Below are positions 1,862 through 17,451 of a stretch of DNA of 64,000 nucleotides, piece by piece. Below the pieces are notes generated by a model. That model was given only the letters and a program-made list of their open reading frames with translations. It was not told the DNA's origin and did not search any database. Position 1 is the first letter of the stretch. Each line of letters opens with the position of its first letter. The stretch is from assembly GCF_002854065.1 (NCBI RefSeq), contig NZ_CP024147.1. One strand, 5' to 3'. The DNA is from Escherichia coli (GTDB lineage: Bacteria; Pseudomonadota; Gammaproteobacteria; Enterobacterales; Enterobacteriaceae). A program made the position numbers and the translations under genes.

Positions 1862-4474
1862 ATGATGCTCAGTAGCGAGTTTTTGCGCTTTTTTCAAACC
1901 TTAAACACAACAGAAGTCCCCAGTAATGTCAGGAAAATAGCGAATCTTGTGTGGGATAACCTAGATGATATAACCCCATTGGGCACTTCGCAGGGTCAGC
2001 GAGTCAGGCGCATTGTCTCTCTGGCACAGTCTGCATGGGATGCCCTCAGTACAGAAGTACAGCCACTACCAGAGCAGACCGCTGAACGCGTCTCCACGTT
2101 TAGTCGGCTGAGAAAGATATCTGTTGGACCATTTAGAGGGTTTGCAAAGCAAGAAGAATTTGATCTGGATTCACGTCTAGTGCTGATTTACGGCCCCAAT
2201 GGTACTGGGAAGTCAAGTTTCTGCGAAGCGCTTGAATATACATTACTGGGCAATGTGGCTGAGGCCGAAAGCAAGCGTTTCCGGAATCAAAACGACTATT
2301 TTAAAAATGCACATGTCAATCGGTTTTCTGTTCCAGAGATAATTGGTGTCGGAGATCATGGGCAGGATGTGTCGATTGAGAATAACGAAGCACAGTATCG
2401 CTTTTGCTTTGTTGAAAAAAATCGTATCGACAACTTTTCAAGAATCGCGGCTCTGGTCCCAACAAGGCAGACTGAACTTATCTCAACACTATTCGGGCTA
2501 GATAGTTTTAATGATTTTGTGCGAAATTTTACATCAGATATTGATGCCAGATACATCGATCTAACAGGCGTAAAAGCAGGTCAGTTGGCAGAAAAGCGCA
2601 AGTCTCTTCTGGCTGCACAGCAGCAATTGGCGACAGGTCAGGCTGCCCTGGAAGGGTTGGCATCAGAGGAACAGACACTGGCTTCTGTTTATCGTGAAGG
2701 CCTGTCTTACCAGCAGATGCTAGCTGAGTTAAAAGGGGATGAACAAAATATCGGAACCATCCGACAGCTTGAAACAGAGTTACAAACGCCACTTCCGAAT
2801 CAGAGTAGCCTGACATCTGCTATTTTGAACGATATAAGTAGCGCTGTTGAAACGGCACTTATAGATCTGGAAAGCAAGCAGAAGCAACTGGCAGAGGCAA
2901 GTCAGCAGGTTTCATATAAAAATTTATTTGAAGCAGTTGTCCAGTTACAGGGTACCAGCCCGGAACAATGCCCTGCATGCCATACCCCTCTTCAGCAAAC
3001 CGCCAAAAACCCCTACAGCCATGCCTGTGATGAATTGCTAAAGCTTGAGTTTCTGTCGACATTACAGGGAGAAATAACTCAGCTGGAAAAATTAATTGGC
3101 CAGTTGATGTACAGTGTTTCACAAGTAATCGGCACATGCTGTCAGTTTTTGCCACATGACAATGCTCTTGAAGTATTCCGAAATGAAAATGGCATCACTT
3201 TATGGCGTAATCTGCGGCAGCAAACAGGAGATGGCATAACTCCCTGGGCTCAGCTTGAAAAACAGGTGTGGCATCTGGAGGGAGAAGATAAAAAAATAGA
3301 GGAAGCAACTAAATTGCGAGAATCCCGTCAGCGGGATCTTGCGAGAATGCGTGAATCTGATCGCCAGATAACGATTTTGCAGACAAGAAGAGATACGATA
3401 GAAAAAACCATCTCTGCGGCTCAGTTGTTGATTGGCAACTTTGATACTGAAAACAGGCAGCTAATTGAAGAAGTTGCTCACGAAGAAGACATTGTAAGGA
3501 AAAACAAAGCAATTTCAGAAGCGTATTCCCGGTTCGTTTTACAGCTGAACGCCTATAAAGAGGGATTACCTCAGAGACTTGTAGCGAATCTTGGGGATCA
3601 CATTGTCACTCTCTACAACGCATTTAACCGTAATGACCCCCCGGGAGAAAAGCTAGCAGGTATCAAACTACCTCTGCTGCAGAATCAGCGACTGGAAGTA
3701 GCGTTTCAGAATAATCCAACGCAACTATTCGATGCCCTGCATGTACTTAGTGAGGGGCATGTACGCTGTATAGGGCTGGCTATTTTGTTGGCAAAAAACA
3801 TTAATGAACAGTGTCCACTTTTGATATTTGATGACCCGGTCAATGCTATTGATGACGATCACAGAGAATCGATTCGGAGAACGTTGTTTGAAGATGCTTT
3901 CTTTGCTGAAAAACAAATCATTCTGGCCTGCCATGGAGAGGAATTCTTCAAAGACATCCAGAATTTATTGCCAGCGCCGGTTGCCGCACAGTCCAAGACT
4001 TTCAGCTTCTTACCGCGTCTTGACGAATTGCATATCCGCGTAGATTTTAACTGCGCTCCCAGGAACTATATTATTTCTGCACGAGGGCATTATGAGCGTA
4101 ATGAGATTCGGGAGGCGCTTGCAAAATGCAGACAGTCACTTGAATCGTTGATGAAGGGGAGAGTCTGGCGATATGTAAATAAATATGGTGATGGTAATCT
4201 TAGTCTCAAGCTAAGGTCAGCAACGGCACCTATTGAGTTACGTAACTTGTCGGATCAATTGAAGAAACAGATCAATAAAGCTGAGTTCCGTGACCAAAAT
4301 AAAAACGCCGTATTCACACCAATTGATGTGTTAACTGGGCTAAGTGGAGAATCACGAGAATGGCGCTATCTAAATAAAGGTACGCATGAGGAAGACGGCA
4401 GGGCTGAGTTTGATCGAGCAACAGTAGAAACCATGATTTCTGCCCTTGAGGCGCTCGATCAGGCTGTGAGTTAA
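1862..4474 (+). CDS. Rad50/SbcC-like ABC ATPase with central CxxC zinc hook and C-terminal putative nuclease domain (RloC-like anticodon-nuclease candidate), 870 aa
   Basis: RBS AAGGA at 1852; Walker A GPNGTGKSS (nt 2192-2218); CPAC at nt 2969-2980 at the midpoint between the ATPase halves; signature-like LSEGH, Walker B LLIFDDP (nt ~3818-3838), H-loop ACHGEEF; C-terminal ~200 aa with REWRYLNKGTH (R-x6-H). Confidence 0.55.
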   Translation: MMLSSEFLRFFQTLNTTEVPSNVRKIANLVWDNLDDITPLGTSQGQRVRRIVSLAQSAWDALSTEVQPLPEQTAERVSTFSRLRKISVGPFRGFAKQEEFDLDSRLVLIYGPNGTGKSSFCEALEYTLLGNVAEAESKRFRNQNDYFKNAHVNRFSVPEIIGVGDHGQDVSIENNEAQYRFCFVEKNRIDNFSRIAALVPTRQTELISTLFGLDSFNDFVRNFTSDIDARYIDLTGVKAGQLAEKRKSLLAAQQQLATGQAALEGLASEEQTLASVYREGLSYQQMLAELKGDEQNIGTIRQLETELQTPLPNQSSLTSAILNDISSAVETALIDLESKQKQLAEASQQVSYKNLFEAVVQLQGTSPEQCPACHTPLQQTAKNPYSHACDELLKLEFLSTLQGEITQLEKLIGQLMYSVSQVIGTCCQFLPHDNALEVFRNENGITLWRNLRQQTGDGITPWAQLEKQVWHLEGEDKKIEEATKLRESRQRDLARMRESDRQITILQTRRDTIEKTISAAQLLIGNFDTENRQLIEEVAHEEDIVRKNKAISEAYSRFVLQLNAYKEGLPQRLVANLGDHIVTLYNAFNRNDPPGEKLAGIKLPLLQNQRLEVAFQNNPTQLFDALHVLSEGHVRCIGLAILLAKNINEQCPLLIFDDPVNAIDDDHRESIRRTLFEDAFFAEKQIILACHGEEFFKDIQNLLPAPVAAQSKTFSFLPRLDELHIRVDFNCAPRNYIISARGHYERNEIREALAKCRQSLESLMKGRVWRYVNKYGDGNLSLKLRSATAPIELRNLSDQLKKQINKAEFRDQNKNAVFTPIDVLTGLSGESREWRYLNKGTHEEDGRAEFDRATVETMISALEALDQAVS

Positions 4475-4607
4475 TATATGTAAAGTGGTCTATAAAATTG
4501 GCCACAACATGAGAATTACTGTTCGTTGGTTCCTGGCACAGAGCGTCTGTCAGATTTAGTTTAGCTCTGTGTCATACCAGTGGTAGCTCAAGTCGCGGCT
4601 AATGCAA

Positions 4608-5336
4608 TTAATCACTGAATACCAACGAATCTAATACACCTTGTCCACTATGAACTCCTCCTTCAACTGACTCTGCTGATTTGCTACGGATCAAATACCC
4701 AGCAAAACTGTGATCAGCGCTAGATGCATTGTTACCTATCTGGACGGAGAACATTCCTAGTTCGCTGACCAGATCAGTAACCTGATATAACTCCCCTTTA
4801 CGGACAACCAGAGAAGGTGTAGCTCGCGGGACAGGATGTATCCGACGCATGAACGACCAGGATTGATATTGCAGCGGGTCAAGTCTTGCCAGTTTTAACT
4901 GGATATCAGAGCCAAACAGACAATGCCCACCCCCTTCGCCCTGGTTTTTGAGAACCCATGAATCAGAAGGAGACTCTTTTACAATGCTGATTGTATCAGG
5001 GCTAACAGGAAGCATTTCGCCCAACACCATTTTTATGATATCAACCTCTTCCGGCTTCAGTCCAAAAGCAATCAGTTCATCGCACCCCAAATGAGAGAGC
5101 AACATTTGTACTCGCTTACTTGTCGCAAGTTGCTGAGCGACTGTTGCATTCACCGCAACTCGGTGCTGCTCAATCAATACTCGCGTGGCCATTAGCGTCT
5201 GGCAACACTCCTTCTCATTGAGACTGGCGGCTTCATAATCTGAGTATTGATATCCGGCACGTAAGTAAACAGAAGTAGTATGGGTGTATGAACTTGTCAT
5301 TGTTTTGACATTTATCAAATATATTCGATTATGCAT
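4608..5336 (-). CDS. Hypothetical protein (242 aa; alternative start at 5300 gives 230 aa), divergent from arsR; contains vicinal Cys pair (KECCQT)
   Basis: Only long ORF covering this interval; convergent with the ATPase gene; no recognised family; weak RBS at both candidate starts. Confidence 0.45.
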   Translation of the reverse strand: MHNRIYLINVKTMTSSYTHTTSVYLRAGYQYSDYEAASLNEKECCQTLMATRVLIEQHRVAVNATVAQQLATSKRVQMLLSHLGCDELIAFGLKPEEVDIIKMVLGEMLPVSPDTISIVKESPSDSWVLKNQGEGGGHCLFGSDIQLKLARLDPLQYQSWSFMRRIHPVPRATPSLVVRKGELYQVTDLVSELGMFSVQIGNNASSADHSFAGYLIRSKSAESVEGGVHSGQGVLDSLVFSD

Positions 5337-5353
5337 ATGTGTTGTTGATTTTC

Positions 5354-5368
5354 ATCTCCGCAGGAGAT
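5354..5368. promoter_or_regulatory. Perfect 15-bp palindrome ATCTCCGCAGGAGAT in the divergent promoter region just upstream of the arsR RBS
   Basis: Seen directly; RBS AGGAGG at 5387-5392. Confidence 0.3.
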
Positions 5369-5393
5369 ATCGTTACCTAAACGAACAGGAGGA

Positions 5394-5747
5394 ATGATGT
5401 CGCTTACTTCCCTACAACTCTTTAAGAATCTGTCTGATGAAACACGTCTGGGTATTGTTCTCATACTCAGAACTATGGGGGAGTTGTGCGTATGTGATCT
5501 TTGCACTGCACTTGATCAATCACAGCCTAAGATCTCCCGGCATCTGGCTATGTTGCGAGAAAGTGGGATTTTGCTTGATAGTAAACACGGTAAATGGGTT
5601 CATTACCGGTTATCCCCACACATTCCTTCATGGGCTGCACAGATTATTGAGCAGGCCTGGTTAAGCCAACAGGACGATCTTCAGGCCATCGCCCGTAAAC
5701 TGGCTTCAGTCAACTGCACTAACAGCAGTAAGGCTATTTGTATTTAA
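5394..5747 (+). CDS. arsR: Arsenical resistance operon repressor ArsR (R773-type, ELCVCDLC As(III) site)
   Basis: 117 aa; near-identity to recalled R773 ArsR (…LQLFKNLSDETRLGIVL…ELCVCDLC…). Confidence 0.92.
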   Translation: MMSLTSLQLFKNLSDETRLGIVLILRTMGELCVCDLCTALDQSQPKISRHLAMLRESGILLDSKHGKWVHYRLSPHIPSWAAQIIEQAWLSQQDDLQAIARKLASVNCTNSSKAICI

Positions 5748-5793
5748 AAATTTGCCTGAATATATATGATTTCCCACATATGAGGTATTGAGA

Positions 5794-6156
5794 ATGAAAA
5801 CGCTAGCGGTATTCGACCCGGCAATGTGTTGTAGCACCGGTGTCTGCGGTACTGATGTCGATCAGGCTCTGGTTGATTTTTCCGCGGATGTGCAATGGCT
5901 GAAACAACGAGGTGTTCAGGTAGATCGTTTCAATCTGGCACAGCAACCGATGAGCTTTGTCCAGAACGAGAAAGTTAAAGCATTTATTGAGGCTTCTGGT
6001 GCGGAAGGGCTGCCATTACTGTTACTGGATGGCGAAACAGTGATGGCCGGGCGTTATCCGAAACGGGCTGAACTTGCACGGTGGTTTGGAATTCCGCTGG
6101 AGAAAGTAGGATTAGCGCCTTCAGGCTGCTGCGGTGGTAATACTTCTTGTTGTTAA
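5794..6156 (+). CDS. arsD: Arsenic metallochaperone/secondary regulator ArsD
   Basis: MKTLAVFDPAMCCSTGVCG…GCCGGNTSCC; start set at ATG 5794 after RBS TGAGG. Confidence 0.92.
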   Translation: MKTLAVFDPAMCCSTGVCGTDVDQALVDFSADVQWLKQRGVQVDRFNLAQQPMSFVQNEKVKAFIEASGAEGLPLLLLDGETVMAGRYPKRAELARWFGIPLEKVGLAPSGCCGGNTSCC

Positions 6157-6173
6157 GTATGTCAGGAGGACAT

Positions 6174-7925
6174 ATGAAATTCTTACAGAACATCCCCCCT
6201 TATCTGTTTTTTACTGGTAAAGGAGGCGTTGGTAAAACCTCTATTTCCTGCGCCACGGCGATCCGTCTGGCAGAACAGGGTAAACGAGTGCTGCTGGTCA
6301 GTACCGATCCGGCCTCAAACGTAGGCCAGGTCTTTGGCCAGGTTATTGGCAATACTATTCAGCCAATAGCCACTGTTCCTGGATTGTCGGCACTTGAGAT
6401 TGATCCTCAGGCCGCTGCGCAACAGTACCGGGCCAGAATCGTTGACCCTATTAAAGGTGTCCTGCCTGATGACGTCGTTAGCAGCATCAACGAACAACTG
6501 TCTGGTGCATGCACAACAGAGATTGCGGCTTTTGATGAGTTTACCGGATTACTGACAGACGCCTCTTTGCTGACCCAGTTTGACCATATCATCTTTGATA
6601 CCGCGCCAACCGGCCATACTATTCGCCTTCTCCAGTTGCCAGGCGCCTGGAGCAGCTTTATTGACAGCAATCCCGAGGGCGCATCCTGCCTCGGCCCGAT
6701 GGCGGGGCTGGAAAAACAGCGTGAACAGTATGCCCATGCCGTTGAAGCACTGTCCGACCCAGCGCGTACCCGCCTGGTTTTAGTTGCCAGACTGCAAAAA
6801 TCCACCCTGCAAGAAGTCGCCCGAACTCATTTAGAACTCGCCGCAATTGGCCTTAAAAATCAGTACTTGGTCATTAATGGCGTTCTGCCCAAAACTGAAG
6901 CGGCAAACGATACACTGGCTGCGGCTATATGGGACCGTGAACAGGAGGCGCTGGCCAATCTTCCTTCTGACCTTTCCGGTCTGCCAACTGACACGTTATT
7001 CCTCCAACCACTCAATATGGTCGGCGTGGCTGCATTAAGTGGGCTTCTCTCCTCTCAGCCTGAGGCAGCATCATCTTCTGAAGAATACATTCAGCAACGA
7101 CCTGAAATTCCGTCGCTCTCAGCGTTAGTCGATGATATTGCCCGTAACGAACATGGTCTGATAATGCTAATGGGCAAAGGCGGTGTGGGGAAAACCACGA
7201 TGGCGGCAGCCATTGCCGTCAGACTGGCCGAAATGGGATTTGATGTCCATCTGACCACCTCAGATCCAGCAGCACACCTCAGCACAACCCTGAACGGTAG
7301 CCTTAACAATCTGCAGGTCAGTAGAATCGATCCTCACGAGGAAACAGAACGCTATCGTCAGCATGTTCTTGATACCAAGGGTGGAGAACTGGATGAAGCG
7401 GGTAAACGCCTGCTGGAAGAAGATTTACGCTCTCCTTGTACCGAAGAGATTGCGGTCTTCCAGGCCTTTTCACGGGTGATTCGTGAAGCGGGTAAGCGCT
7501 TCGTGGTCATGGATACGGCACCCACCGGGCATACCCTACTGCTGCTGGATGCCACCGGGGCGTATCACCGCGAAATTGCTAAGAAAATGGGCGATAAAGG
7601 CCATTTCACCACGCCAATGATGCAGCTTCAGGACCCGGAGCGAACCAAAGTGTTACTGGTCACGCTGCCGGAAACCACGCCCGTGCTTGAGGCGGCAAAT
7701 TTGCAGGCCGACCTTGAACGCGCAGGGATTCATCCCTGGGGCTGGATTATCAATAACAGCCTTTCCATTGCGGATACCCGTTCGCCGCTGCTTCGTCTGC
7801 GGGCGCAACAGGAACTTCCGCAGATCGAGAGTGTTAAACTCCAGCATGCCAGTCGCGTAGCTCTTGTTCCTGTACTGGCGTCAGAACCGACCGGCATCGA
7901 CAAACTCAAACAACTCGCTGGTTAA
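6174..7925 (+). CDS. arsA: Arsenite-translocating ATPase ArsA (two nucleotide-binding domains)
   Basis: Two GKGGVGKT P-loops and two DTAPTGHT motifs; start at MKFLQN after RBS AGGAGG. Confidence 0.92.
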
Positions 7926-7972
7926 TTATTGTCATTACTCGGGGCAGCTTTGCTGCCCTTTCGGGAGGTTAT

Positions 7973-9262
7973 ATGTTACTGGCAGGAGCCATTTTTATCC
8001 TGACCATCGTGTTGGTTATCTGGCAGCCAAAGGGATTAGGCATTGGCTGGAGCGCCACGCTGGGTGCCGTACTGGCTCTGGCATCGGGTGTGATTCATAT
8101 CGCCGATATTCCGGTGGTGTGGAATATCGTCTGGAACGCCACGGCCACCTTTATTGCCGTCATTATCATCAGTCTGTTGCTGGATGAGTCCGGCTTTTTT
8201 GAATGGGCTGCACTGCACGTTTCCCGCTGGGGCAATGGGCGTGGACGTCTGCTATTTACCTATATTGTTCTGCTCGGCGCGGCGGTGGCGGCATTGTTTG
8301 CCAACGATGGCGCGGCGTTAATTCTGACGCCGATCGTTATCGCCATGCTACTGGCGCTGGGATTCAGTAAAAGCACCACGCTGGCTTTCGTGATGGCCGC
8401 AGGGTTTATTGCCGATACCGCCAGCTTGCCACTTATCGTATCGAACCTGGTCAATATCGTTTCGGCTGATTTCTTCAAACTGGGATTCACGGAGTATGCG
8501 TCAGTTATGGTGCCGGTGGATATTGCCGCCATTGTCGCCACGCTGGTGATGCTGCATCTTTTTTTCCGCAAAGATATCCCGCCCACTTATGAGCTGGCGC
8601 GACTGAAAGAACCCGCAAAAGCCATCAAAGATCCTGCGACGTTCAGAACCGGCTGGGTTGTGCTCCTCCTTCTGCTGGTCGGTTTTTTTGTCCTTGAGCC
8701 GATGGGGATCCCTGTGAGTGCGATTGCGGCAGTGGGGGCGGCAATCCTGTTTGCGGTGGCCAAAAAAGGTCATGGTATTAACACCGGTAAAGTGCTGCGC
8801 GGCGCGCCCTGGCAGATCGTGATCTTCTCACTGGGGATGTATCTGGTGGTATACGGGTTGCGTAACGCCGGTCTGACGGATTATCTCTCTGACGTGCTGA
8901 ACGTACTGGCAGATAAAGGACTGTGGGCCGCGACGCTGGGGACAGGATTCCTGACTGCATTCCTCTCTTCTATCATGAACAATATGCCGACCGTACTGGT
9001 TGGCGCACTGTCGATTGATGGCAGCACCGCGACCGGCGTTATCAAAGAAGCGATGATTTATGCCAACGTCATTGGCTGCGATCTGGGGCCGAAAATCACC
9101 CCTATTGGTAGCCTGGCGACACTGCTCTGGCTGCACGTGCTTTCACAGAAGAATATGACAATCTCGTGGGGATACTACTTCCGCACCGGGATTATCATGA
9201 CCCTGCCTGTGCTGTTTGTAACGCTGGCTGCGCTGGCGCTACGTCTCTCTGTCACTTTGTAA
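7973..9262 (+). CDS. arsB: Arsenite/antimonite efflux permease ArsB
   Basis: 429-aa polytopic membrane protein, C-terminus …[12 protein letters not shown] as in ArsB. Confidence 0.92.
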
Positions 9263-9274
9263 TGAGATTCTGAT

Positions 9275-9700
9275 ATGAGCAACATCACTATTTATCACAA
9301 CCCAGCCTGCGGCACCTCGCGTAATACGCTGGAGATGATCCGCAACAGCGGTACCGAGCCGACCATTATTCTTTACCTTGAGAACCCACCTTCGAGGGAT
9401 GAATTGGTCAAACTCATTGCCGATATGGGTATTTCAGTACGAGCGCTGCTGCGTAAAAACGTTGAGCCTTACGAGCAACTGGGTCTTGCAGAAGATAAAT
9501 TTACTGACGATCAGCTCATCGACTTTATGTTGCAACACCCAATTCTGATTAACCGTCCGATCGTGGTTACGCCGCTGGGAACCAGACTGTGCCGTCCTTC
9601 TGAAGTGGTTCTGGATATCCTGCAGGATGCGCAGAAAGGGGCTTTCGCTAAGGAAGACGGTGAAAAGGTCGTTGATGAAGCAGGAAAACGGCTGAAATAA
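9275..9700 (+). CDS. arsC: Glutaredoxin-dependent arsenate reductase ArsC
   Basis: 141 aa, HNPACGTSRNT catalytic Cys motif. Confidence 0.92.
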   Translation: MSNITIYHNPACGTSRNTLEMIRNSGTEPTIILYLENPPSRDELVKLIADMGISVRALLRKNVEPYEQLGLAEDKFTDDQLIDFMLQHPILINRPIVVTPLGTRLCRPSEVVLDILQDAQKGAFAKEDGEKVVDEAGKRLK

Positions 9701-9702
9701 AT

Positions 9703-9728
9703 AATAAGGGGGCGAATGCCCCCTTATT
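9703..9728. terminator. Hairpin AATAAGGGGGC-GAAT-GCCCCCTTATT between convergent arsC and GNAT gene (bidirectional terminator candidate)
   Basis: GC-rich 8-bp stem with flanking A/T runs. Confidence 0.6.
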
Positions 9729-9734
9729 CGTACC

Positions 9735-10271
9735 TCAGAGCATCATGCCTGAATCCGATGGTAACGTGCTGTTCCCTTCGCCCAGATTTCGTTGCAGCAA
9801 CACTGTGTCAAGCCAACGACCATGCTTGAAGCCAATATTTTTCAGCGTACCAATCTCAGTAAATCCAACCTGCTGATGGACTTTCAGCGAACCTTGATTA
9901 TTGCTATCGCCGACAATAGCAATCATCTGCCGATAGCCGTGAGTTTCTGCCCAGGCAATGACGTAGCGCAGCAACGCTTTTCCTGTCCCCTGACGCTGTG
10001 CGTCCGGGTGAATATAAATCGAATCTTCGAGAGTGTGGCGGTAGGCGTAGCGTTCACGGTAACGAGTGAGATAACAATACCCGATAACCTTTTCTTCCTC
10101 TAACGCGACAACCCACGGTAGCGCCTGATTGCGGATCTTTTTCAGGCGGGTAAGCATCTCGTGGGTATCCGGAGGTTCAGTTTCAAAGCTGGCGGTACCG
10201 TGAAGAACATGATGGGCGTAGATATCGCGTATAGCGGGGATGTGCTTTTCTTCTGCGTTAACGATTTTCAT
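9735..10271 (-). CDS. GNAT acetyltransferase of the phosphinothricin-acetyltransferase family (ArsN1-like arsinothricin N-acetyltransferase candidate)
   Basis: 178 aa; resembles E. coli MnaT/PAT proteins (…IYAHHVLHGTASFETEPP…YIHPDAQRQGTGKALL…); positioned in an ars island. Confidence 0.7.
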   Translation of the reverse strand: MKIVNAEEKHIPAIRDIYAHHVLHGTASFETEPPDTHEMLTRLKKIRNQALPWVVALEEEKVIGYCYLTRYRERYAYRHTLEDSIYIHPDAQRQGTGKALLRYVIAWAETHGYRQMIAIVGDSNNQGSLKVHQQVGFTEIGTLKNIGFKHGRWLDTVLLQRNLGEGNSTLPSDSGMML

Positions 10272-10435
10272 TGTTCTGTTCCCGTTGGCATCTTTTTCAA
10301 GGTTACTTGAAAATCCTGAGGAAAGGTAAATACAAAAGCTTATGACCCAATAAGCAGGCTAATCTTCAATCCCATCTTTTGTTTTCATTCATGCAGGGAG
10401 ACAAATATGTGCTTCCAGTATCCTTATTTTTTATG

Positions 10436-10479
10436 TTACCTTTTCCGTTATGTCTAAAATGACATAACGGAAAAGGTAA
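10436..10479. promoter_or_regulatory. 44-bp perfect palindrome (19-bp arms TTACCTTTTCCGTTATGTC / GACATAACGGAAAAGGTAA, 6-bp spacer) ending 4 nt before the tauE-like start codon
   Basis: Seen directly; right arm contains the putative RBS AAAGG. Confidence 0.5.
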
Positions 10480-10483
10480 ACCC

Positions 10484-11308
10484 ATGTCCTCAGAATCAAA
10501 ACGGAACGGAAAAGGTTTTTTATCAGGCACGTTAATCGGTGCTTTAGGCGGCTTAATTGGCCTCGGTGGCGCTGAGTTCCGCCTTCCCGTCCTGATGGGT
10601 AGTTTCAAAATGCCGACGCTTGAAGCGGTTATTTTTAACAAAGCGATGAGCCTTACTGTTGTCGCTGTTGCTTTGATATTCCGCACAAAATCCATCGCCG
10701 TCGACCAGCTGTTTGCTCATCTTGATATTGTCATCAATTTGCTGGCCGGGAGCCTTATAGGTGCATGGTGGGCAGCAGGAAGAGCCATAAAAATGTCCCG
10801 TATTTGGCTGGACAGAACCATTCTGCTCCTGCTTGTTATCCTGTCATTCGTCATGTTTTCAGAAGCATTGATGCCTCTGCATGATAGCTCCGCTGGATTA
10901 TTCCAGCCCGGAATCGCGACCATTATTGCGGGTGTTATTGCGGGTGTTATTGCGGGTTTCTTCATCGGGAATGTTGCTGCTTTGCTGGGTGTTGCAGGGG
11001 GAGAGCTCCTGATACCAACTATCGTTATCCTTTTTGGGGCTGACATTAAACTGGCTGGCAGTTTGTCACTCATGATCAGTTTACCGACGATGATTGTGGG
11101 GTTCTCTCGCTACACTAATGCAGATGCTTTCCAGATCCTGAGAAAAGAGAAAAAACTTTTTGTGTGGATGGTCATCGGTTCCGTTATAGGTGCCGCTATT
11201 GGGGGCCTTATGCTCGGTATGTTCCCGGTAAGAGTACTTATGACTCTGTTAGGCGCGGTACTTCTTATTTCCGCGATCAAAACCTTTAAGCATACCCGGC
11301 AAAGATAA
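10484..11308 (+). CDS. TauE/SafE (TSUP/DUF81) family anion exporter-like membrane protein
   Basis: 274 aa, two glycine-rich hydrophobic halves (GALGGLIGLGGAEFRLP…; …GVAGGELLIPTIVILFG). Confidence 0.7.
   Translation: MSSESKRNGKGFLSGTLIGALGGLIGLGGAEFRLPVLMGSFKMPTLEAVIFNKAMSLTVVAVALIFRTKSIAVDQLFAHLDIVINLLAGSLIGAWWAAGRAIKMSRIWLDRTILLLLVILSFVMFSEALMPLHDSSAGLFQPGIATIIAGVIAGVIAGFFIGNVAALLGVAGGELLIPTIVILFGADIKLAGSLSLMISLPTMIVGFSRYTNADAFQILRKEKKLFVWMVIGSVIGAAIGGLMLGMFPVRVLMTLLGAVLLISAIKTFKHTRQR
10925..10960 (+). repeat. 12-bp tandem repeat ATTGCGGGTGTT x3 (last copy degenerate) inside the tauE-like gene, encoding (IAGV)2-IAGF
   Basis: Seen directly. Confidence 0.6.
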
Positions 11309-11370
11309 TAGCCGTTTACGCTTTGGACTATTCCGCATTACAGAGAAAATGATTTCGAAAAGGTATCAGA

Positions 11371-11739
11371 ATGAAAAAGAATCCCCTTAAATCAAACTTA
11401 ATCTTAGTCAGACCGAGGATCTATATTAACGACAACATCTCGCTGGGGCCGGGGAAGGTTGACCTTTTAAGGGCGATTGATGGCTTTCACTCTCTTTCTG
11501 CGGCAGCTAAAGATTTGGGGATACCTTATAAAAAAGCATGGCTCTTAATTGACACTTTGAATAAAGGGATTGGTCAGCCAGTTGTAACCACTTCCACTGG
11601 TGGTAACAAGGGCGGTGGTACAGTTCTGACGCCATTGGGGCGTAGCCTGCTGATCTGGTATGACCAGGCCGAGGCCCACCTCAATGAGCAATCTCAGCAA
11701 CAGTTAATCGAACTTGAAAAGATTCTTTTTGGAAAATGA
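11371..11739 (+). CDS. ModE N-terminal-domain-like winged-helix regulator (single domain, no Mop/TOBE domains)
   Basis: 122 aa; …AAKDLGIPYKKAWLLIDTLNKGIGQPVVTTSTGGNKGGGTVLTPLGRSLLIWY resembles ModE N-terminal HTH with the GG(K)GGGG loop. Confidence 0.6.
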   Translation: MKKNPLKSNLILVRPRIYINDNISLGPGKVDLLRAIDGFHSLSAAAKDLGIPYKKAWLLIDTLNKGIGQPVVTTSTGGNKGGGTVLTPLGRSLLIWYDQAEAHLNEQSQQQLIELEKILFGK

Positions 11740-11784
11740 CAGAGACCTTTGTTATCCATCGGGAAAATAGAGTGACAGCAATGC

Positions 11785-11810
11785 ATGAAGGGGGCTAATG
11801 CCCCCTTCAT
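11785..11810. terminator. Hairpin ATGAAGGGGGC-TAAT-GCCCCCTTCAT between convergent modE-like gene and arsA2; 19/20 identical to the hairpin at 9703-9728
   Basis: Seen directly. Confidence 0.6.
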
Positions 11811-11812
11811 TA

Positions 11813-13570
11813 TTACTTCGCCATTTCTTCCAGCAGGTCAATACCAACCGGCTCTTCGCTCTGTAGCGCTGTTAATGCAATACGCTTTGCATACTGCTCT
11901 TCCACATCAGAGATGAGAGGCAGCTCGCGGTTAGCTCTGGTCTTCAGGAAAGGTGAAGACGGCTCAGCAGCTGCCAGGCTGTTATTCACAACCCATGCCC
12001 ACGGCTCAATGCCAGCCCGACGCAGATCCTGCTGCAGGTTAGCGGCTTCCAGTACAGGTGTCGTTTCGGCAAGCGTCACGATAATCACCTTCGTCTTCTC
12101 CGGGTCCTGCAATTGCATCATTGGCGTCATCACATGGTCATGTGTTTGCCCCATCTGGCGCACCATTTCCCGGTGATAGGCTCCAGTCGCATCCAGTAGC
12201 AGAAGTGTGTGACCCGTTGGCGCGGTGTCCATAATGACAAAATGATCGTCTGCCTCTTTGATTATCCGCGAGAATGCCTGGAAGACGGCGATCTCTTCAG
12301 TACATGGTGAGCGGAGATCTTCTTCCAGCACCGCCAGCCCCTCAGCGTCTAATCCTTTGCCCTGATTCTCCAGTACAAAACGGCGATAACGCTCTGTCTC
12401 CACCTTCGGATCGATACGGCTGACCTGCAGATTTGGCAGCGAGCCATCCAGCGTGTAAGACAGATGTGCTGCCGGATCGGACGTGGTCAGATGGACTTTA
12501 TGACCGCGTTTTGCCAGCGATACCGCGACCGATGCTGCAACAGTCGTTTTGCCCACGCCGCCTTTCCCCATCGTCATTACCAGCCCTTTGCCTGTCAGAC
12601 TGAGTTCATCCACTAACGAGGAAAGTTTCGGTAAATCCAGAGCATTTAGCGTTGTATTGGAGAGAGACAGTGGCGCTTTGCTCTCTGTTAATAACTCTCG
12701 CAGGGCTTCCAGACCGACCAGATTAAATGGCTTCAGAGACAGCTGCGAGCGGGGAAGATTAACCAGATTATCAGGCATTGCCTGTAATGCTTTTTCTTCC
12801 CGAGCCAGAATACTTTGCGCCAGTGGATCATTTTCACCGGCAAACGGTGGCAGCACACCATTAATGGCAAGGTGTTGATGCTGCAAACCAATAGCAGAAA
12901 GCTCATCGTGCGTATGAGAAACCTCTTTCAGCGTTGAAGCCTGAGCTCGGGCAACCAGCACTAAGCGTGTGAGAGCTGCGTCGGACAGCGCTTTAACCGC
13001 ATCGGAGTACTGGTGCTGTTGTTTCTCAAGCCCTACCAGAGGTCCAAGGTTTGCAGCGGCATCAGGGTTCGCTTCGAGATAACCGCTCCAGGCTCCCGGC
13101 AATTCAAGCATGCGGATGGTGTGACCGGTTGGCGCGGTATCAAATACGATATGGTCATATTTTCCCCGCAGCTCATGATTGGTCAGCAGACCAGTAAACT
13201 CATCAAACGCAGCGATTTCCGTGGTGCATGAGCCGGAAAGCTGCTCTTCAATGCTGCTGACCACATCGGCTGGCATCAGCCCGCGAACAGGGTCGAGCAC
13301 ACGGTCACGATAGGCTTGCGCTGCAGCCATCGGATCAACTTCCATCGCGGCAAGATTTTCTACAGTACTGATATCTGTGATTCGGTGGCCGATAGTCTGG
13401 CTAAATACCTGGCCGACATTGGAAGCCGGATCGGTACTCACCAGAAGCGTTCTCTTACCCTGATCGGCCAGCCATACTGCAGTAGCACAGGCCAGGGATG
13501 TCTTACCCACTCCACCTTTACCAGTGAAGAAGATGAACGGGGGAATGTCTTTTAAAAATGGCATATTCAT
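11813..13570 (-). CDS. arsA: Second arsenite-stimulated ATPase ArsA (divergent paralogue)
   Basis: Two GKGGVGKT / DTAPTGHT sets; start MNMPFLKD with RBS GAGGAG. Confidence 0.85.
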   Translation of the reverse strand: MNMPFLKDIPPFIFFTGKGGVGKTSLACATAVWLADQGKRTLLVSTDPASNVGQVFSQTIGHRITDISTVENLAAMEVDPMAAAQAYRDRVLDPVRGLMPADVVSSIEEQLSGSCTTEIAAFDEFTGLLTNHELRGKYDHIVFDTAPTGHTIRMLELPGAWSGYLEANPDAAANLGPLVGLEKQQHQYSDAVKALSDAALTRLVLVARAQASTLKEVSHTHDELSAIGLQHQHLAINGVLPPFAGENDPLAQSILAREEKALQAMPDNLVNLPRSQLSLKPFNLVGLEALRELLTESKAPLSLSNTTLNALDLPKLSSLVDELSLTGKGLVMTMGKGGVGKTTVAASVAVSLAKRGHKVHLTTSDPAAHLSYTLDGSLPNLQVSRIDPKVETERYRRFVLENQGKGLDAEGLAVLEEDLRSPCTEEIAVFQAFSRIIKEADDHFVIMDTAPTGHTLLLLDATGAYHREMVRQMGQTHDHVMTPMMQLQDPEKTKVIIVTLAETTPVLEAANLQQDLRRAGIEPWAWVVNNSLAAAEPSSPFLKTRANRELPLISDVEEQYAKRIALTALQSEEPVGIDLLEEMAK

Positions 13571-13590
13571 CAGTGATAGCTCCTCTGGAA

Positions 13591-13953
13591 TTAAGGCATA
13601 CGTGGAATGCTGCAGCAACGCGGTTGCGTACTGTCTTCACTCCAGTCCTGAGTTAGCGGAATATCTGCCCAACGGGCGATATCTTCACGAGTCGGCAGTT
13701 TGCCTGCCATCACCAGCTTGCCGTCGAGCAAGGTGACAGGGAGGGATTCCATCCCTGATGTGTTCATAAACTCTTTGATTACAGGGGTATTCAGGAACTG
13801 CTGCGGGTTTTTCGCAAGGCTGTAGCGCTGAATATCAACGCCATTCTTTTTCGCCCATTCGGCGCTGGCATTCCATTTGACGGCTTCGTCGCTCACCACA
13901 ACGCTGCTGGTTGCGCAGCAGCCTGCTGCTTCAAAGATCTCAATTTTTGACAT
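13591..13953 (-). CDS. arsD: ArsD-like metallochaperone (divergent; only the N-terminal CC pair conserved)
   Basis: 120 aa, MSKIEIFEAAGCCATS…, immediately upstream of arsA2. Confidence 0.7.
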   Translation of the reverse strand: MSKIEIFEAAGCCATSSVVVSDEAVKWNASAEWAKKNGVDIQRYSLAKNPQQFLNTPVIKEFMNTSGMESLPVTLLDGKLVMAGKLPTREDIARWADIPLTQDWSEDSTQPRCCSIPRMP

Positions 13954-14028
13954 GGATTGTTTACCTCAGTGTTTAGTCATTTGGCTTTACACTGAGGTAA
14001 ACGAAGGTGGTGGGAAAAAGATGCGCGA

Positions 14029-14574
14029 TTAATTCATTTTTTTGTGGCAGCAGACAAAAGATGTGTCATCCGCCTCAATCTGGCAGAGTTCTGTCATCGT
14101 CTCTTTCAGGTGTTTTCTGGCCCGAAGTAGTCGGGATTTAAACGCTGTAAGCGTGATTCCCCATTCATCGGCCAGGGACTGCTGGGGACGCCGGTTAAGG
14201 TCGGACTCTTCAATCAACCACCGCTCATCTTCGGGTAAAGCCTGTAATGTTTCAGGCAGGCAAATATCCAGTGTTGAGATTGCATCAAGGGATGCGTCTG
14301 TTAATAGGGCATCTTCTTCCAGCTCAACAAACGCCCTGGTGGTTCGGTACTCATCAATCAGCAGATTCCTTGCTACCCGATACAACCAGGCTCGCGGATT
14401 TTCCATCTCACAAAAAATGTCTGAATGGGCTCGGGCACGCAGGAAAAGGTCTTGCAGAAGGTCTGCTGCTTTTTCGCTATCGCCTGTCTTCGATATCAGA
14501 AAGCGAGAAAATTCGCCTTCATGCTGCCGCCAGAACACGCTCATACAGCTGTTGAATGCTGTTATGTCACTCAT
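14029..14574 (-). CDS. ECF (sigma-70 family, group IV) sigma factor with C-terminal Cys-containing tail (…ELCQIEADDTSFVCCHKKMN)
   Basis: Region 2 (…NPRAWLYRVARNLLIDEYR) and region 4 (…SLADEWGITLTAFKSRLLRARKHL) motifs; ATG 14574 with RBS GAAGG overlapping arsH stop codon. Confidence 0.75.
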   Translation of the reverse strand: MSDITAFNSCMSVFWRQHEGEFSRFLISKTGDSEKAADLLQDLFLRARAHSDIFCEMENPRAWLYRVARNLLIDEYRTTRAFVELEEDALLTDASLDAISTLDICLPETLQALPEDERWLIEESDLNRRPQQSLADEWGITLTAFKSRLLRARKHLKETMTELCQIEADDTSFVCCHKKMN

Positions 14575-14582
14575 ACTAACCT

Positions 14583-15293
14583 TCAAATTTTGCTCTGATT
14601 AACCCGTCGGGAAAGTTCTTCTGCAGACTCTTTTCGTTCACTGTAGCGATCGACAAGATAGGCAGAATTTGCCCGGGTCAACAATGTAAACTTCATCAAT
14701 TCTTCCATCACATCCACGATGCGGTCGTAATATGGTGACGGTTTCATACGTCCATCGTCATCAAACTCCTGCCAGGCTTTTGCTACCGAGGACTGGTTCG
14801 GAATAGTGATCATTCTCATCCAACGACCAAGCACGCGCATCTGGTTGACTGTGTTGAATGACTGGGAACCTCCACACACTTGCATAACAGCCAGAGTTTT
14901 TCCCTGAGAAGGACGAACAGCACCTTCAGATAATGGTATCCAGTCAATTTGTGCCTTCATAATACCAGTCATCGCTCCGTGTCGTTCCGGAGAGCACCAC
15001 ACCATTCCTTCAGACCAGCGGACCAGTTCACGCAACTCCATAACTTTTGGATGTGACTCCGGTGCATCATCAGGAAGTGGAAGGCCAGATGGATTAAAAA
15101 TGCGGACTTCTGCGCCCATCGCAGTTAACAACCGACCAGCTTCCTCTGTCGCCAGTCGACTGTATGAGCGCTCACGAACTGAGCCATAAAGCATTAGTAT
15201 ACGAGGGGGGTGAGATATTGTCGGTATCCCCATTTTTTGCTCAGTTATTGCAGCATCAAATAAATCAGGAACTATATTATTTAGCTTATTCAT
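14583..15293 (-). CDS. arsH: ArsH, NADPH-dependent FMN reductase (organoarsenical oxidase)
   Basis: 236 aa; …[18 protein letters not shown]… flavodoxin-like motif typical of ArsH. Confidence 0.85.
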
Positions 15294-15391
15294 TTTTTAT
15301 TTTCCCTATAGATTCGGGATCTTAGTAGGATGGATTCAGACGGTTCGATGCAGCTTTCGTCAATCATGACAGTTATGAGTTTTTCGGTTAC

Positions 15392-15715
15392 TTATCCATT
15401 TTTGCCAGCGGGTTCCGTAACATCTGTTTTACTGTTTACACAGCACTCTTCACGTAAGAATTCGATGATAGCTTCCAGTATTTCGTATTGAGAGACGCAC
15501 ATGAGCGTTCGACTCTCCCGGTTTTGTGTGACGAGTCCTACTGATACTAAGGCTGAAATATGATGACTTAACGTTGATGAGGGAATGCCAAGCTGCTTTT
15601 GCAATTCACCTACAGGCAAACCTTGTTCTCCAGCTTTTACAAGATGTTTGAATATGAACAAACGGGTCGGGTGACCCAGCTCTTTTAGTGCTTTAGCTAC
15701 TTCTTCCAATTGCAT
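15392..15715 (-). CDS. arsR: ArsR/SmtB family repressor, C-terminal vicinal-Cys type (…REECCVNSK…)
   Basis: 107 aa; HTH …LPVGELQKQLGIPSSTLSHHISALVSVGLV…; lacks the CVC site of R773 ArsR. Confidence 0.8.
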   Translation of the reverse strand: MQLEEVAKALKELGHPTRLFIFKHLVKAGEQGLPVGELQKQLGIPSSTLSHHISALVSVGLVTQNRESRTLMCVSQYEILEAIIEFLREECCVNSKTDVTEPAGKNG

Positions 15716-15735
15716 GTGACAACCCTCTGTCTAAT

Positions 15736-15798
15736 GATATTTCGATAATACCAGAAATATCTTGACCAGAATTATATTTCGATTATTCTAGAAATGTA
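15736..15798. promoter_or_regulatory. Two tandem imperfect palindromic operator-like sites (GATATTTCGATAATACCAGAAATATC at 15736-15761 and TATATTTCGATTATTCTAGAAATGTA at 15773-15798) in the arsR2/arsP divergent intergenic region
   Basis: Seen directly; candidate ArsR2 binding sites. Confidence 0.45.
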
Positions 15799-15820
15799 GA
15801 TTTTGTCAAGAGGGTTTAGT

Positions 15821-16954
15821 ATGAATAGTTGGATTTCTATGCTGCAAGATGCCGCAGAGATGTTTTTGTTTTTGGCCGTCGAGCTATCTTTGCTGTTTAT
15901 TGTCATCAGTGCCGGTGTGAGCCTGATAAGGCAAAAGGTCCCGGACCATAAAATCCAGCAATTGTTGGGGGCGAAAAAAGGAAAAGGCTACCTGCTGGCC
16001 TCGTTGTTGGGAGCCGTTACCCCTTTCTGTAGTTGCTCAACAATTCCAATGCTACGAGGGTTGTTGTCGGCGAAAGCAGGGTTTGGTCCGACACTCACTT
16101 TTTTGTTTGTTTCACCGTTGCTTAATCCCATTATCGTGGGGTTAATGTGGGTTACCTTTGGCTGGAAAGTAACTTTGTTGTACGCGATCATCGCTGCCGG
16201 TGTCTCAGTCCTTGCCAGTATCGTATTGGATTTACTAGGATTTGAACGTCATATTGTTGATCACAAAAACTCAGCATCAAGTGGTTGCGCCACCAAATGT
16301 GATGATTCCGAAGCTTCGGTAAAAACGTCGGCGGGTTCCAGTTGTTGCAGCACTAGCTCGACTCAATTGCCTGTAAAAACGAGTTGCTGTACTTCATCAG
16401 CGAACCCCATAATTAACTTAAGGACGGTAAAGAACGAGCAGAACGTATCAACGTGTTGTTCATCAATATCATCTGAACAACCAGCTGTTAGCTGTTGCAG
16501 CAGCGAGAATCTGGGCAATGTGAATCTCACACCGAATACCACCTCTGGCCCAATAAAGTTAGCTATGAAAGATGCCTTACAGCAGTTTAAGGATGTTCTG
16601 CCTTATCTTTTGTTAGGTGTATTAATAGGTTCATTTATTTATGGCTTTATCCCTTCAGAGTGGATTGCAGCTCATGCCGGAGCAGATAATCCCTTAGCCA
16701 TACCGCTGAGTGCAGTTGTTGGTATTCCGTTGTATATACGCGCAGAGGCAGTGATACCACTTGCATCAGTGCTGATGACTAAAGGAATGGGCCTGGGGGC
16801 ATTAATGGCCTTGATAATCGGTAGTGCTGGAGCGAGTTTGACAGAAGTAATACTGCTTAAATCAATGTTCAGAATGCCTATGATAGTCGCTTTTCTGACA
16901 GTTATCTTAGGTATGGCAATTCTAATGGGTTATCTGACTCAATTCTTGTTTTAA
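15821..16954 (+). CDS. arsP: ArsP-type organoarsenical efflux permease with Cys/Ser-rich loop
   Basis: TPFCSCS motif recalled for ArsP; start ATG 15821 after RBS GAGGG; central loop has four CC pairs. Confidence 0.8.
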   Translation: MNSWISMLQDAAEMFLFLAVELSLLFIVISAGVSLIRQKVPDHKIQQLLGAKKGKGYLLASLLGAVTPFCSCSTIPMLRGLLSAKAGFGPTLTFLFVSPLLNPIIVGLMWVTFGWKVTLLYAIIAAGVSVLASIVLDLLGFERHIVDHKNSASSGCATKCDDSEASVKTSAGSSCCSTSSTQLPVKTSCCTSSANPIINLRTVKNEQNVSTCCSSISSEQPAVSCCSSENLGNVNLTPNTTSGPIKLAMKDALQQFKDVLPYLLLGVLIGSFIYGFIPSEWIAAHAGADNPLAIPLSAVVGIPLYIRAEAVIPLASVLMTKGMGLGALMALIIGSAGASLTEVILLKSMFRMPMIVAFLTVILGMAILMGYLTQFLF

Positions 16955-16965
16955 AGCATTACAAC

Positions 16966-16997
16966 AAGGGTCTTCTGCCTCAAGATCGAAGACCCTT
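16966..16997. terminator. Hairpin AAGGGTCTTC-12 nt-GAAGACCCTT downstream of arsP (weak T-tract; terminator-like)
   Basis: Seen directly. Confidence 0.35.
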
Positions 16998-17451
16998 CAG
17001 TTTCACTAGCAGATTGCCAGTTCTAGTAGCCAATTAAGAGAGGAGTGGATTGTTCTTTGGGTATTCGCAAACCCAGCAACGGTAAAATCAGGACTGACCC
17101 AAAAATTCAACGAGAATCCACCCCTTTAAATCTTTGATCCCTTCCCGGAAGCAGTATACGGCATATCTGAGTTAATCGTTTCTATTGGAGCTTCAGGGAA
17201 GCGACTCTTAATAGAAATCTGTTAATACTGTCCAAAACTGATTCCCTTTATCCCGAGCTGAACCGTAACAAAACCATCTCTCTTTGAGATCTCACATACT
17301 CAACGAACATAAGCCATTGCTGCTACATACAATTTTACGAAGCATATCACCTTAGTTGATCATGAAATCCATCCTGAATACAGATTGATTTTTATACTAT
17401 ATTAAGTGAGATATGATCTTCTTTAGAGTTGAGCTAAAAGGAGTCGAGGCG

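Follow-up and report, generated by a model that had tools for sequence, protein, structure and literature searches.

The arsR2-arsP locus and its surroundings

We analysed a stretch of 64,000 nucleotides from Escherichia coli, here called the window, which contains an island with two ars operons. The repressor gene of the second operon, arsR2 (15392-15715, minus strand), encodes an ArsR/SmtB protein of 107 amino acids with cysteines at positions 73, 91 and 92. It is transcribed away from arsP (15821-16954, plus strand), which codes for a 377-amino-acid permease of the ArsP_1 family with a TPFCSCS motif (PF03773, E = 8.6e-55). The arsP start codon, an ATG at 15821, agrees with the RefSeq annotation, in which the two genes are labelled merely as 'ArsR/SmtB family transcription factor' and 'permease'. 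Downstream of arsR2 and likewise on the minus strand are arsH (14583-15293; TIGR02690, about 403 bits), a gene for a SigZ-like ECF sigma factor (14029-14586; TIGR02959), an arsD-like gene (13591-13953; NF033727) and arsA (11813-13618; TIGR04291). Judging from the spacing of the genes, this minus-strand segment (11813-15293) is probably co-transcribed with arsR2.

The ArsR2 protein matched the family models NF033788 (63.2 bits, cut-off 55), PF12840 (55 bits) and PF01022 (31 bits) and contains the winged helix-turn-helix domain of the ArsR/SmtB family. The vicinal cysteine pair, Cys91 and Cys92, was invariant in 20 ArsR2 homologues, and the tail that follows it, VNSKTDVTEPAGKNG, contains no cysteine at all. 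The closest relative with a solved structure was AfArsR (PDB 6J05, E = 2e-11), in which Cys95 and Cys96 align with Cys91 and Cys92 of ArsR2. In this protein, from Acidithiobacillus ferrooxidans, the cysteine pair likewise ends the C-terminal helix and forms a type 2 As(III) site together with Cys102. ArsR2 has no third cysteine of the AfArsR type, which makes three-coordinate binding of As(III) impossible at its Cys91/Cys92 site.

The chromosome of E. coli CUWW06, a strain from wastewater in Thailand, contains the window at 100% identity, with positions 1-24000 corresponding to about 4.43-4.45 Mb of NZ_CP182139.1. Among 5,426 complete E. coli genomes, a single one contained the 19-kb stretch from window positions 4000-23000 at a coverage of at least 80%. 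The island adjoins dinQ and a remnant of arsC from the native ars locus and is flanked by IS2 and IS1, and the segment 17413-22271 contains a gene for a site-specific integrase followed by three hypothetical ORFs. The same order of island genes was observed on the IncFII plasmid NZ_CP024882.1 of C. freundii, and the arsR2-arsP module was found on about 640 enterobacterial plasmids, with alleles at 99.4% and 92.9%. On the plasmids the gene pair often occurs without arsH, and in one case (L001 among the plasmid loci) it is located between copies of IS26. Poultry and swine, which used to receive organoarsenical feed additives, are listed as the hosts of many of these plasmids. The segment between the two ars operons (9735-11739) codes for an ArsN1-like GNAT acetyltransferase (NF040504, below the cut-off), an exporter that RefSeq names as a member of the TauE/SafE family and a ModE-like winged-helix regulator. 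To our knowledge, accessory genes of these three kinds are not typical of classical ars operons.

Palindromes and promoter elements in the intergenic region

Inverted-repeat analysis placed two palindromes inside the 105-bp gap between arsR2 and arsP. The arsR2-proximal putative operator, site 1 (15736-15761), has the plus-strand sequence GATATTTCGATAATACCAGAAATATC, that is GATATTTC-N10-GAAATATC, and reads GATATTTCTGGTATTATCGAAATATC in the sense of arsR2. Its arms are complementary at 8 of 8 positions across a spacer of 10 nt, and its core (15737-15760) starts 45 nt ahead of the arsR2 ATG. The arsP-proximal putative operator, site 2 (15773-15798), has the sequence TATATTTCGATTATTCTAGAAATGTA, that is TATATTTC-N10-GAAATGTA, with arms that are complementary at 7 of 8 positions and a core (15774-15797) that starts 47 nt ahead of the arsP ATG. 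The two sites form a direct repeat with a start-to-start distance of 37 bp and identical nucleotides at 20 of 26 positions. A preliminary description of this DNA had noted two 26-bp palindromes, 37 bp apart, between arsR2 and arsP, and both the coordinates and the description of the arms were correct.

When the entire 64 kb was scanned with the 22-nt motif ATATTTCGATWATNNNAGAAAT, allowing at most 3 mismatches, the two palindromes were the sole matches, which is far above chance (2 vs 0.05 expected from dinucleotide shuffles of the window). Scored with a weight matrix built from orthologous sites, site 1 reached 40.1 bits and site 2 reached 37.2 bits, while the next best position in the 64 kb scored 4.8 bits. 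Neither the pattern scan nor the weight-matrix scan recovered a third ArsR2-type site in the 64-kb window. The matrix was seeded with a pattern derived from the window itself, and the controls that are independent of this seed are the k-mer test and the comparison of upstream DNA with DNA elsewhere (both below).

The predicted promoter elements coincide with the palindromes. The arsR2 promoter is predicted at 15745-15753 on the minus strand, with an extended -10 element, TGGTATTAT, whose hexamer TATTAT (15745-15750) is in the middle of site 1, and with transcription predicted to start near 15738. For arsP, the promoter scan yielded a predicted -35 hexamer TTGACC (15762-15767, plus strand), which abuts site 1, and after a spacer of 16 nt a predicted -10 hexamer TATTCT (15784-15789, plus strand) in the middle of site 2, from which transcription would start near 15796. 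The same scan detected a minus-strand combination of TTGACA (15804-15809), 16 nt and AATAAT (15782-15787), which matches the consensus at 11 of 12 positions and of which the -10 overlaps the arsP -10 within site 2. Since its -35 hexamer is retained only in the enterobacterial clade of alignment A2 (below), this element (15782-15809) was ranked below the site-1 promoter, as a possible additional arsR2 promoter further upstream. In each of these promoter readings both operators would cover -10 elements, as is classical for repressors that act by promoter occlusion. Closer to the genes, both start codons are preceded by the Shine-Dalgarno sequence AGAGGGTT, at 15721-15728 on the minus strand for arsR2 and at 15809-15816 on the plus strand for arsP, the two copies of which make up inverted repeat I3.

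A larger dyad of 52 bp was also observed at 15760-15811 (TCTTGACCAGAATTATATTTC / GAAATGTAGATTTTGTCAAGA, 76% complementary). Within it, mirror-image -35 hexamers (TTGACC on the plus strand and TTGACA on the minus strand) flank site 2, and two face-to-face promoters would have overlapping -10 hexamers in common.

Conservation of the sites and relation to known operators

A profile of ArsR2 homologues was used to collect 80 genomic loci with protein identities of 57-96%, sampled from Aeromonas, Citrobacter, Vibrio, Photobacterium, Shewanella, Serratia, Hafnia, Marinobacterium, Endozoicomonas, Paraglaciecola and one Desulfobulbus MAG. In 74 of the 80 loci, the 250 nt ahead of the arsR homologue contained the dyad ATATTTC-N10-GAAATAT with 11 or more of its 14 positions matched. 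This count, like the other locus counts given here, overstates independence because the loci are phylogenetically related. With the weight matrix at a threshold of at least 14 bits, 73 of the 79 scorable loci had one or more sites within the same 250 nt, and the positions of the matrix sites were distributed as 152 in 17.5 kb of upstream DNA versus 8 in 461 kb elsewhere. In the pattern count, 7 matches fell outside the upstream zone, and 6 of them immediately precede an arsP gene in a non-divergent arrangement with arsR (L029, L032, L063 and L065), indicating that the motif follows both genes, arsR as well as arsP; the arrangement with arsP divergent from the arsR2 homologue was seen in about 58 of the 80 loci. 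When 7-mers were counted in the 63 most distant loci, over the 150 nt that precede the arsR homologue and with no motif preset, TCGAAAT was enriched 90-fold and GAAATAT 50-fold, with CGAAATA and ATCGAAA also among the top 7-mers.

Both sites were conserved in an alignment of 19 intergenic regions (A2), together with a GGTCAAG block that speaks for the predicted arsP -35, while the remainder had diverged. Across distant genera, the most conserved positions were those of the outer half-sites ATATTTC and GAAATAT (1.3-1.9 bits). The consensus dyad was ATATTTC(G/T)(A/G)-N-TCGAAATAT, with ATATTTCGAT-N4-ATCGAAATAT as its most symmetric form. All 60 of the 60 unique arsR-proximal sites have at their centre a -10 hexamer of the type TAnnnT, mostly TATTAT, and conservation of the palindrome centre may reflect this -10 element rather than protein contacts. 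Sites in which the hexamer is preceded by TG, as in an extended -10, had no recognisable -35, while TTGAAT or TTGCAA was present 16-18 nt upstream in the sites that lack the TG. The mean number of matches to the -35 hexamer was 2.6 of 6 with TG versus 3.7 of 6 without (Mann-Whitney p = 1e-7, a value that ignores the kinship of the loci and overstates their independence). In most loci the arsR-proximal site is directly followed by TTGAC(C/A) or TTGATC, the predicted arsP -35. In loci with wider spacing, the predicted arsP -10 corresponds to the upstream half-site of the arsP-proximal site (TATATT or TATAAT).

The distances to the start codons were nearly fixed. The arsR-proximal core starts 40-47 nt ahead of the arsR ATG in about 60 loci, and the start of the arsP-proximal core is 39-48 nt from the arsP ATG in compact loci. 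The distance between the sites differed among taxa, being 37 or 39 bp in Aeromonas and the enterics, 49-51 bp in many marine genera, 62-66 bp in a few loci and 108 bp in S. putrefaciens, which argues for one operator per promoter instead of an obligatory phased pair. Cooperative binding to a phased tandem was rejected as a conserved feature on account of these differences in spacing; locally, at 37 bp, it could matter.

The homologues fall into two groups by their C-terminal cysteines: 37 of the 80 have a two-cysteine tail like ArsR2, and 43 have a third cysteine 3-10 residues after the pair. Two-cysteine tails were seen in the enterics, most Aeromonas and several Shewanella and Photobacterium, and three-cysteine tails (for example CCVNEQC) mostly in Vibrio and also in Serratia. 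Going by the sequences of the tails, this split looks like a repeated gain or loss of a third As(III) ligand, and the 43 members with the additional cysteine may sense As(III). The presence of both groups among the 80 loci means that the operator is common to repressors that are presumed to be selective for organoarsenicals and to repressors that are capable of responding to arsenite.

Genes for SigZ-like sigma factors accompany the arsR2 homologues elsewhere as well. Such a gene immediately follows arsR in some 20 or more Vibrio loci (such as L026, L034 and L045), and in the window it comes after arsH. In the three that were inspected, the C-terminal tails are rich in cysteine (...CQIEADDTSFVCCHKKMN in the window and ...ECCSFSFDKQGRMTDCNQNGSSCDKC in Vibrio), and the SigZ-like factor is possibly an arsenic-linked, thiol-sensing protein.

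A related arsP-arsR-arsH system with the repressor SpArsR, from Shewanella putrefaciens 200, was reportedly described by Chen, Nadar and Rosen in 2017. SpArsR has been described as an AfArsR-like protein without the third cysteine that binds MAs(III) via Cys101 and Cys102 and is unresponsive to As(III) (PMC11868830, PMC13236881). A biosensor has been constructed that combines SpArsR (Sput200_1227) with the 222-bp region ahead of arsP (Sput200_1226), and in E. coli SpArsR alone, in combination with this 222-bp promoter, made a regulated switch (PMC12124457). For our comparison, the SpArsR and promoter sequences were taken from Text S3 of the same paper, the text of which contains small extraction errors. 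ArsR2 and SpArsR are about 54% identical, and Met1 of ArsR2 aligns with Met11 of SpArsR; with this offset of 10 residues, Cys73, Cys91 and Cys92 correspond to Cys83, Cys101 and Cys102. ArsR2 has the vicinal cysteine pair, lacks a third cysteine after it and is encoded in the gene order arsP <-> arsR2-arsH.

The 222-bp promoter from S. putrefaciens contains two of the sites, TAATTTCTGGAATTATGGAAATAT (27.4 bits) and GATATTTCTGGTATTATCGAATTAC (28.7 bits), so that an orthologous repressor acts on a fragment in which the dyads are the conserved elements that can be recognised. The two systems share an AfArsR-like fold, the vicinal cysteine pair, an adjacent arsP gene and two palindromes of the type ATTTC-N-GAAAT, and the proximal site of S. 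putrefaciens, GATATTTCTGGTATTATCGAATTAC, is near-identical to site 1. They differ in that SpArsR carries an N-terminal extension of 10 residues and is only about 54% identical to ArsR2. They also differ in the spacing of the sites, which at 37 bp here versus 108 bp in S. putrefaciens implies that in the window one site serves both promoters. Moreover, the E. coli unit has additional genes for an ECF sigma factor, arsD and arsA and, unlike that of S. putrefaciens 200, it is found on a chromosomal island and on hundreds of enterobacterial plasmids. The suggestion in the preliminary description that the palindromes are ArsR-type operators of a divergent promoter is supported by the footprint over 80 loci, the fixed distances to the start codons, the overlap with the -10 elements and the occurrence of the same palindromes in the arsP promoter under SpArsR control.

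Canonical ArsR/SmtB operators are imperfect 12-2-12 repeats with the core TAxAxTCAAATAxxTATTTGAxTxTA, each of which binds one dimer, and the smt region contains two of them, S2/S1 and S4/S3 (PMC6555750). Similar to these, the sites in the window are imperfect dyads of about 26 bp that overlap a promoter, and there are two dyads in one region as at smtB/smtA. The canonical 12-2-12 core itself had 0 matches in the window at up to 3 mismatches. In contrast to the 12-2-12 operators, the conserved blocks in the arsR2/arsP dyads are the outer ATATTTC and GAAATAT, 10 bp apart, and the centre is a -10 hexamer. A literal search of 8 million papers with the operator string returned unrelated sequences only. 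The arsRM promoter of Noviherbaspirillum denitrificans, as printed in Text S3 of PMC12124457 (TTGACATTTCCAGTATTTTGAAATATCG), contains ACATTTC-N9-GAAATAT, that is the same half-sites with a 9-nt spacer, from which a base may have been dropped in the machine-read text; NdArsR is a MAs(III)-responsive ArsR of betaproteobacterial origin (PMC12124457).

A candidate methylarsenite switch and its alternatives

The two palindromes are non-random and conserved, they are located on promoter elements, and ArsR2 carries the cysteine signature of SpArsR. We consider it very likely, from the sequence comparisons, that they are the operators of ArsR2, and likely that ArsR2, as an SpArsR-type ArsR with two C-terminal cysteines, operates a methylarsenite-sensing switch. 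Binding by ArsR2, the transcription starts and the identity of the inducer are what we infer here, and the selectivity for methylarsenite is extrapolated from a homologue that is about 54% identical. Understood in this way, the palindrome pair belongs, as an ordinary example, to a kind of methylarsenite-sensing switch that is already known, and the finding of the operator pair does not overturn current understanding.

In the proposed switch, one ArsR2 dimer would bind to each 24-bp dyad. A dimer on site 1 would cover the arsR2 -10 element (TGGTATTAT) and abut the arsP -35, and a dimer on site 2 would cover the arsP -10 (TATTCT) as well as the possible upstream arsR2 promoter. With sites on both promoters, bound ArsR2 would block RNA polymerase at both divergent promoters. 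This would repress arsP on one side and arsR2-arsH on the other, the latter probably together with the sigma factor, arsD and arsA. When a trivalent organoarsenical bridges Cys91 and Cys92, methylarsenite being the likeliest candidate, the inducer-bound repressor would leave the DNA and both transcription units would be turned on.

The preliminary description had also pointed to a related motif at 5320-5333, in the region of gene D and arsR, and had suggested from it that one ArsR-type repressor recognises several promoters of the island. The string, TATATTCGATTAT, is indeed present there and resembles the left part of site 2 minus one T. The 9-mer TTCGATWAT, which it has in common with the two sites, occurs 5 times in the window versus 1.5 times expected, yet two of these copies are in unrelated places (22717 and 59647). 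As an instance of the palindrome motif the string does not hold up: the second half-site is absent, there is no match to the dyad motif at 3 mismatches and the best weight-matrix score is -5.8 bits, compared with 40.1 and 37.2 bits at sites 1 and 2. The segment that contains it (5319-5352, plus strand; ATATATTCGATTATGCATATGTGTTGTTGATTTT) is instead a putative ArsR1 operator of the E. coli/R773 type, identical at 24 of 34 positions to the binding sequence of the E. coli chromosomal ArsR, ACACATTCGTTAAGTCATATATGTTTTTGACTTA (PMC6555750). In an alignment of arsR1-upstream regions from plasmids of Klebsiella, Enterobacter and Providencia and from the chromosome of E. whittamii (A3), the motif is within the sole conserved block. 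ArsR1 is itself an R773-type protein (PRK10141, 218 bits) with the sequence ELCVCDLC and a Cys32/Cys34/Cys37 site, and operon 1 (5394-9700) is an R773-type arsRDABC operon. The conserved block, the match at 24 of 34 positions and the type of ArsR1 taken together indicate that 5320-5333 is the 5' part of ArsR1's own operator, which is unrelated to the arsR2/arsP palindromes except for a short TTCGAT-like string. Hence 5320-5333 was rejected as a third ArsR2 site, and it is very unlikely that a single ArsR, be it ArsR2 or ArsR1, reads this motif at several promoters of the island; two ArsR proteins with distinct operators appear to be present.

The annotated start of a glutathione-synthetase-like ORF (4608-5336, minus strand) overlaps the ArsR1 operator. 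Its match to the Pfam model is confined to the C-terminal, ATP-binding part, and the homologue on plasmid pTB202 has 478 amino acids. Somewhere between about 5272 and 5323 the similarity to the plasmid copies breaks off, pointing to a recombination joint.

Operators of ArsR2 have further to be weighed against recognition by another regulator of the region, against promoter or RNA elements without a dedicated repressor, and against a different inducer. It is highly improbable that the palindromes are instead targets of the SigZ-like ECF sigma factor or of the ModE-like winged-helix protein (11371-11739). The gene for the former does lie downstream of arsR2 or its homologues, here and in over 20 Vibrio loci, but the motif is also present at Aeromonas, Shewanella and Serratia loci that have no sigma factor match within 3 kb on either flank, it is a dyad and not a pair of -35 and -10 elements, and SpArsR alone regulates the 222-bp promoter in E. 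coli (PMC12124457). We give almost no weight to the idea that there is no dedicated operator, with the palindromes arising from AT-rich promoter elements (-10 or UP), from chance low-complexity similarity or from a hairpin formed by the leader RNA of arsR2. In favour of it are the resemblance of the site centres to -10 elements and the folding of RNA with site 1 included, which is slightly more stable than that of shuffled sequences (z = -2.2), yet the most conserved positions are the outer half-sites, which are not promoter consensus, and only 0.05 matches are expected by chance. Given the predicted promoter within site 1, a hairpin would not be transcribed intact. An RNA element was rejected, as there was no Rfam match and the z value is a trivial consequence of a DNA palindrome. 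Of more substance, though still unlikely, is a switch with the same operators and the same repressor in which induction is naturally by inorganic As(III)/Sb(III), or by arsenicals of many kinds, and not by methylarsenite selectively. The unit includes arsD-arsA, which serve the efflux of As(III), and 43 of the 80 homologues have a third cysteine as in AfArsR. Against this, ArsR2 itself has only the Cys91/Cys92 pair beyond helix 5, a two-cysteine pattern that reportedly abolishes the As(III) response in SpArsR (PMC11868830, PMC13236881), and the genes under immediate regulation, arsP and arsH, are MAs(III) resistance genes in the SpArsR system.

Beyond ArsR2 as repressor of this promoter pair, we tentatively propose, at rather lower confidence, that ATATTTCGAT-N4-ATCGAAATAT represents an undescribed class of operators with an embedded -10 element that belongs to the ArsR clade with C-terminal cysteines, which comprises the AfArsR and SpArsR types, is distributed throughout the Gammaproteobacteria and is carried on more than 600 enterobacterial plasmids. 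If true, the repressor and RNA polymerase would compete for the same 24 bp in this class, which would span two-cysteine, organoarsenical-sensing members as well as three-cysteine, arsenite-sensing members. The plasmid copies would then represent a compact arsP switch inducible by methylarsenite or roxarsone.

For the ArsR2/SpArsR family, the results give a definition of the operator at the sequence level, comprising the consensus, its register on the -10 element and the presence of one site per promoter. Such a definition may be used for the rational design of methylarsenite biosensors and for annotation of the regulon in genomes and plasmids. Within the island, the two ars operons would be wired to two ArsR proteins with different operators, which fits a separate sensing of inorganic and organic arsenic. 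As the module is common on enterobacterial plasmids (about 640 records), its inducer and its regulation bear on the spread of organoarsenical resistance.
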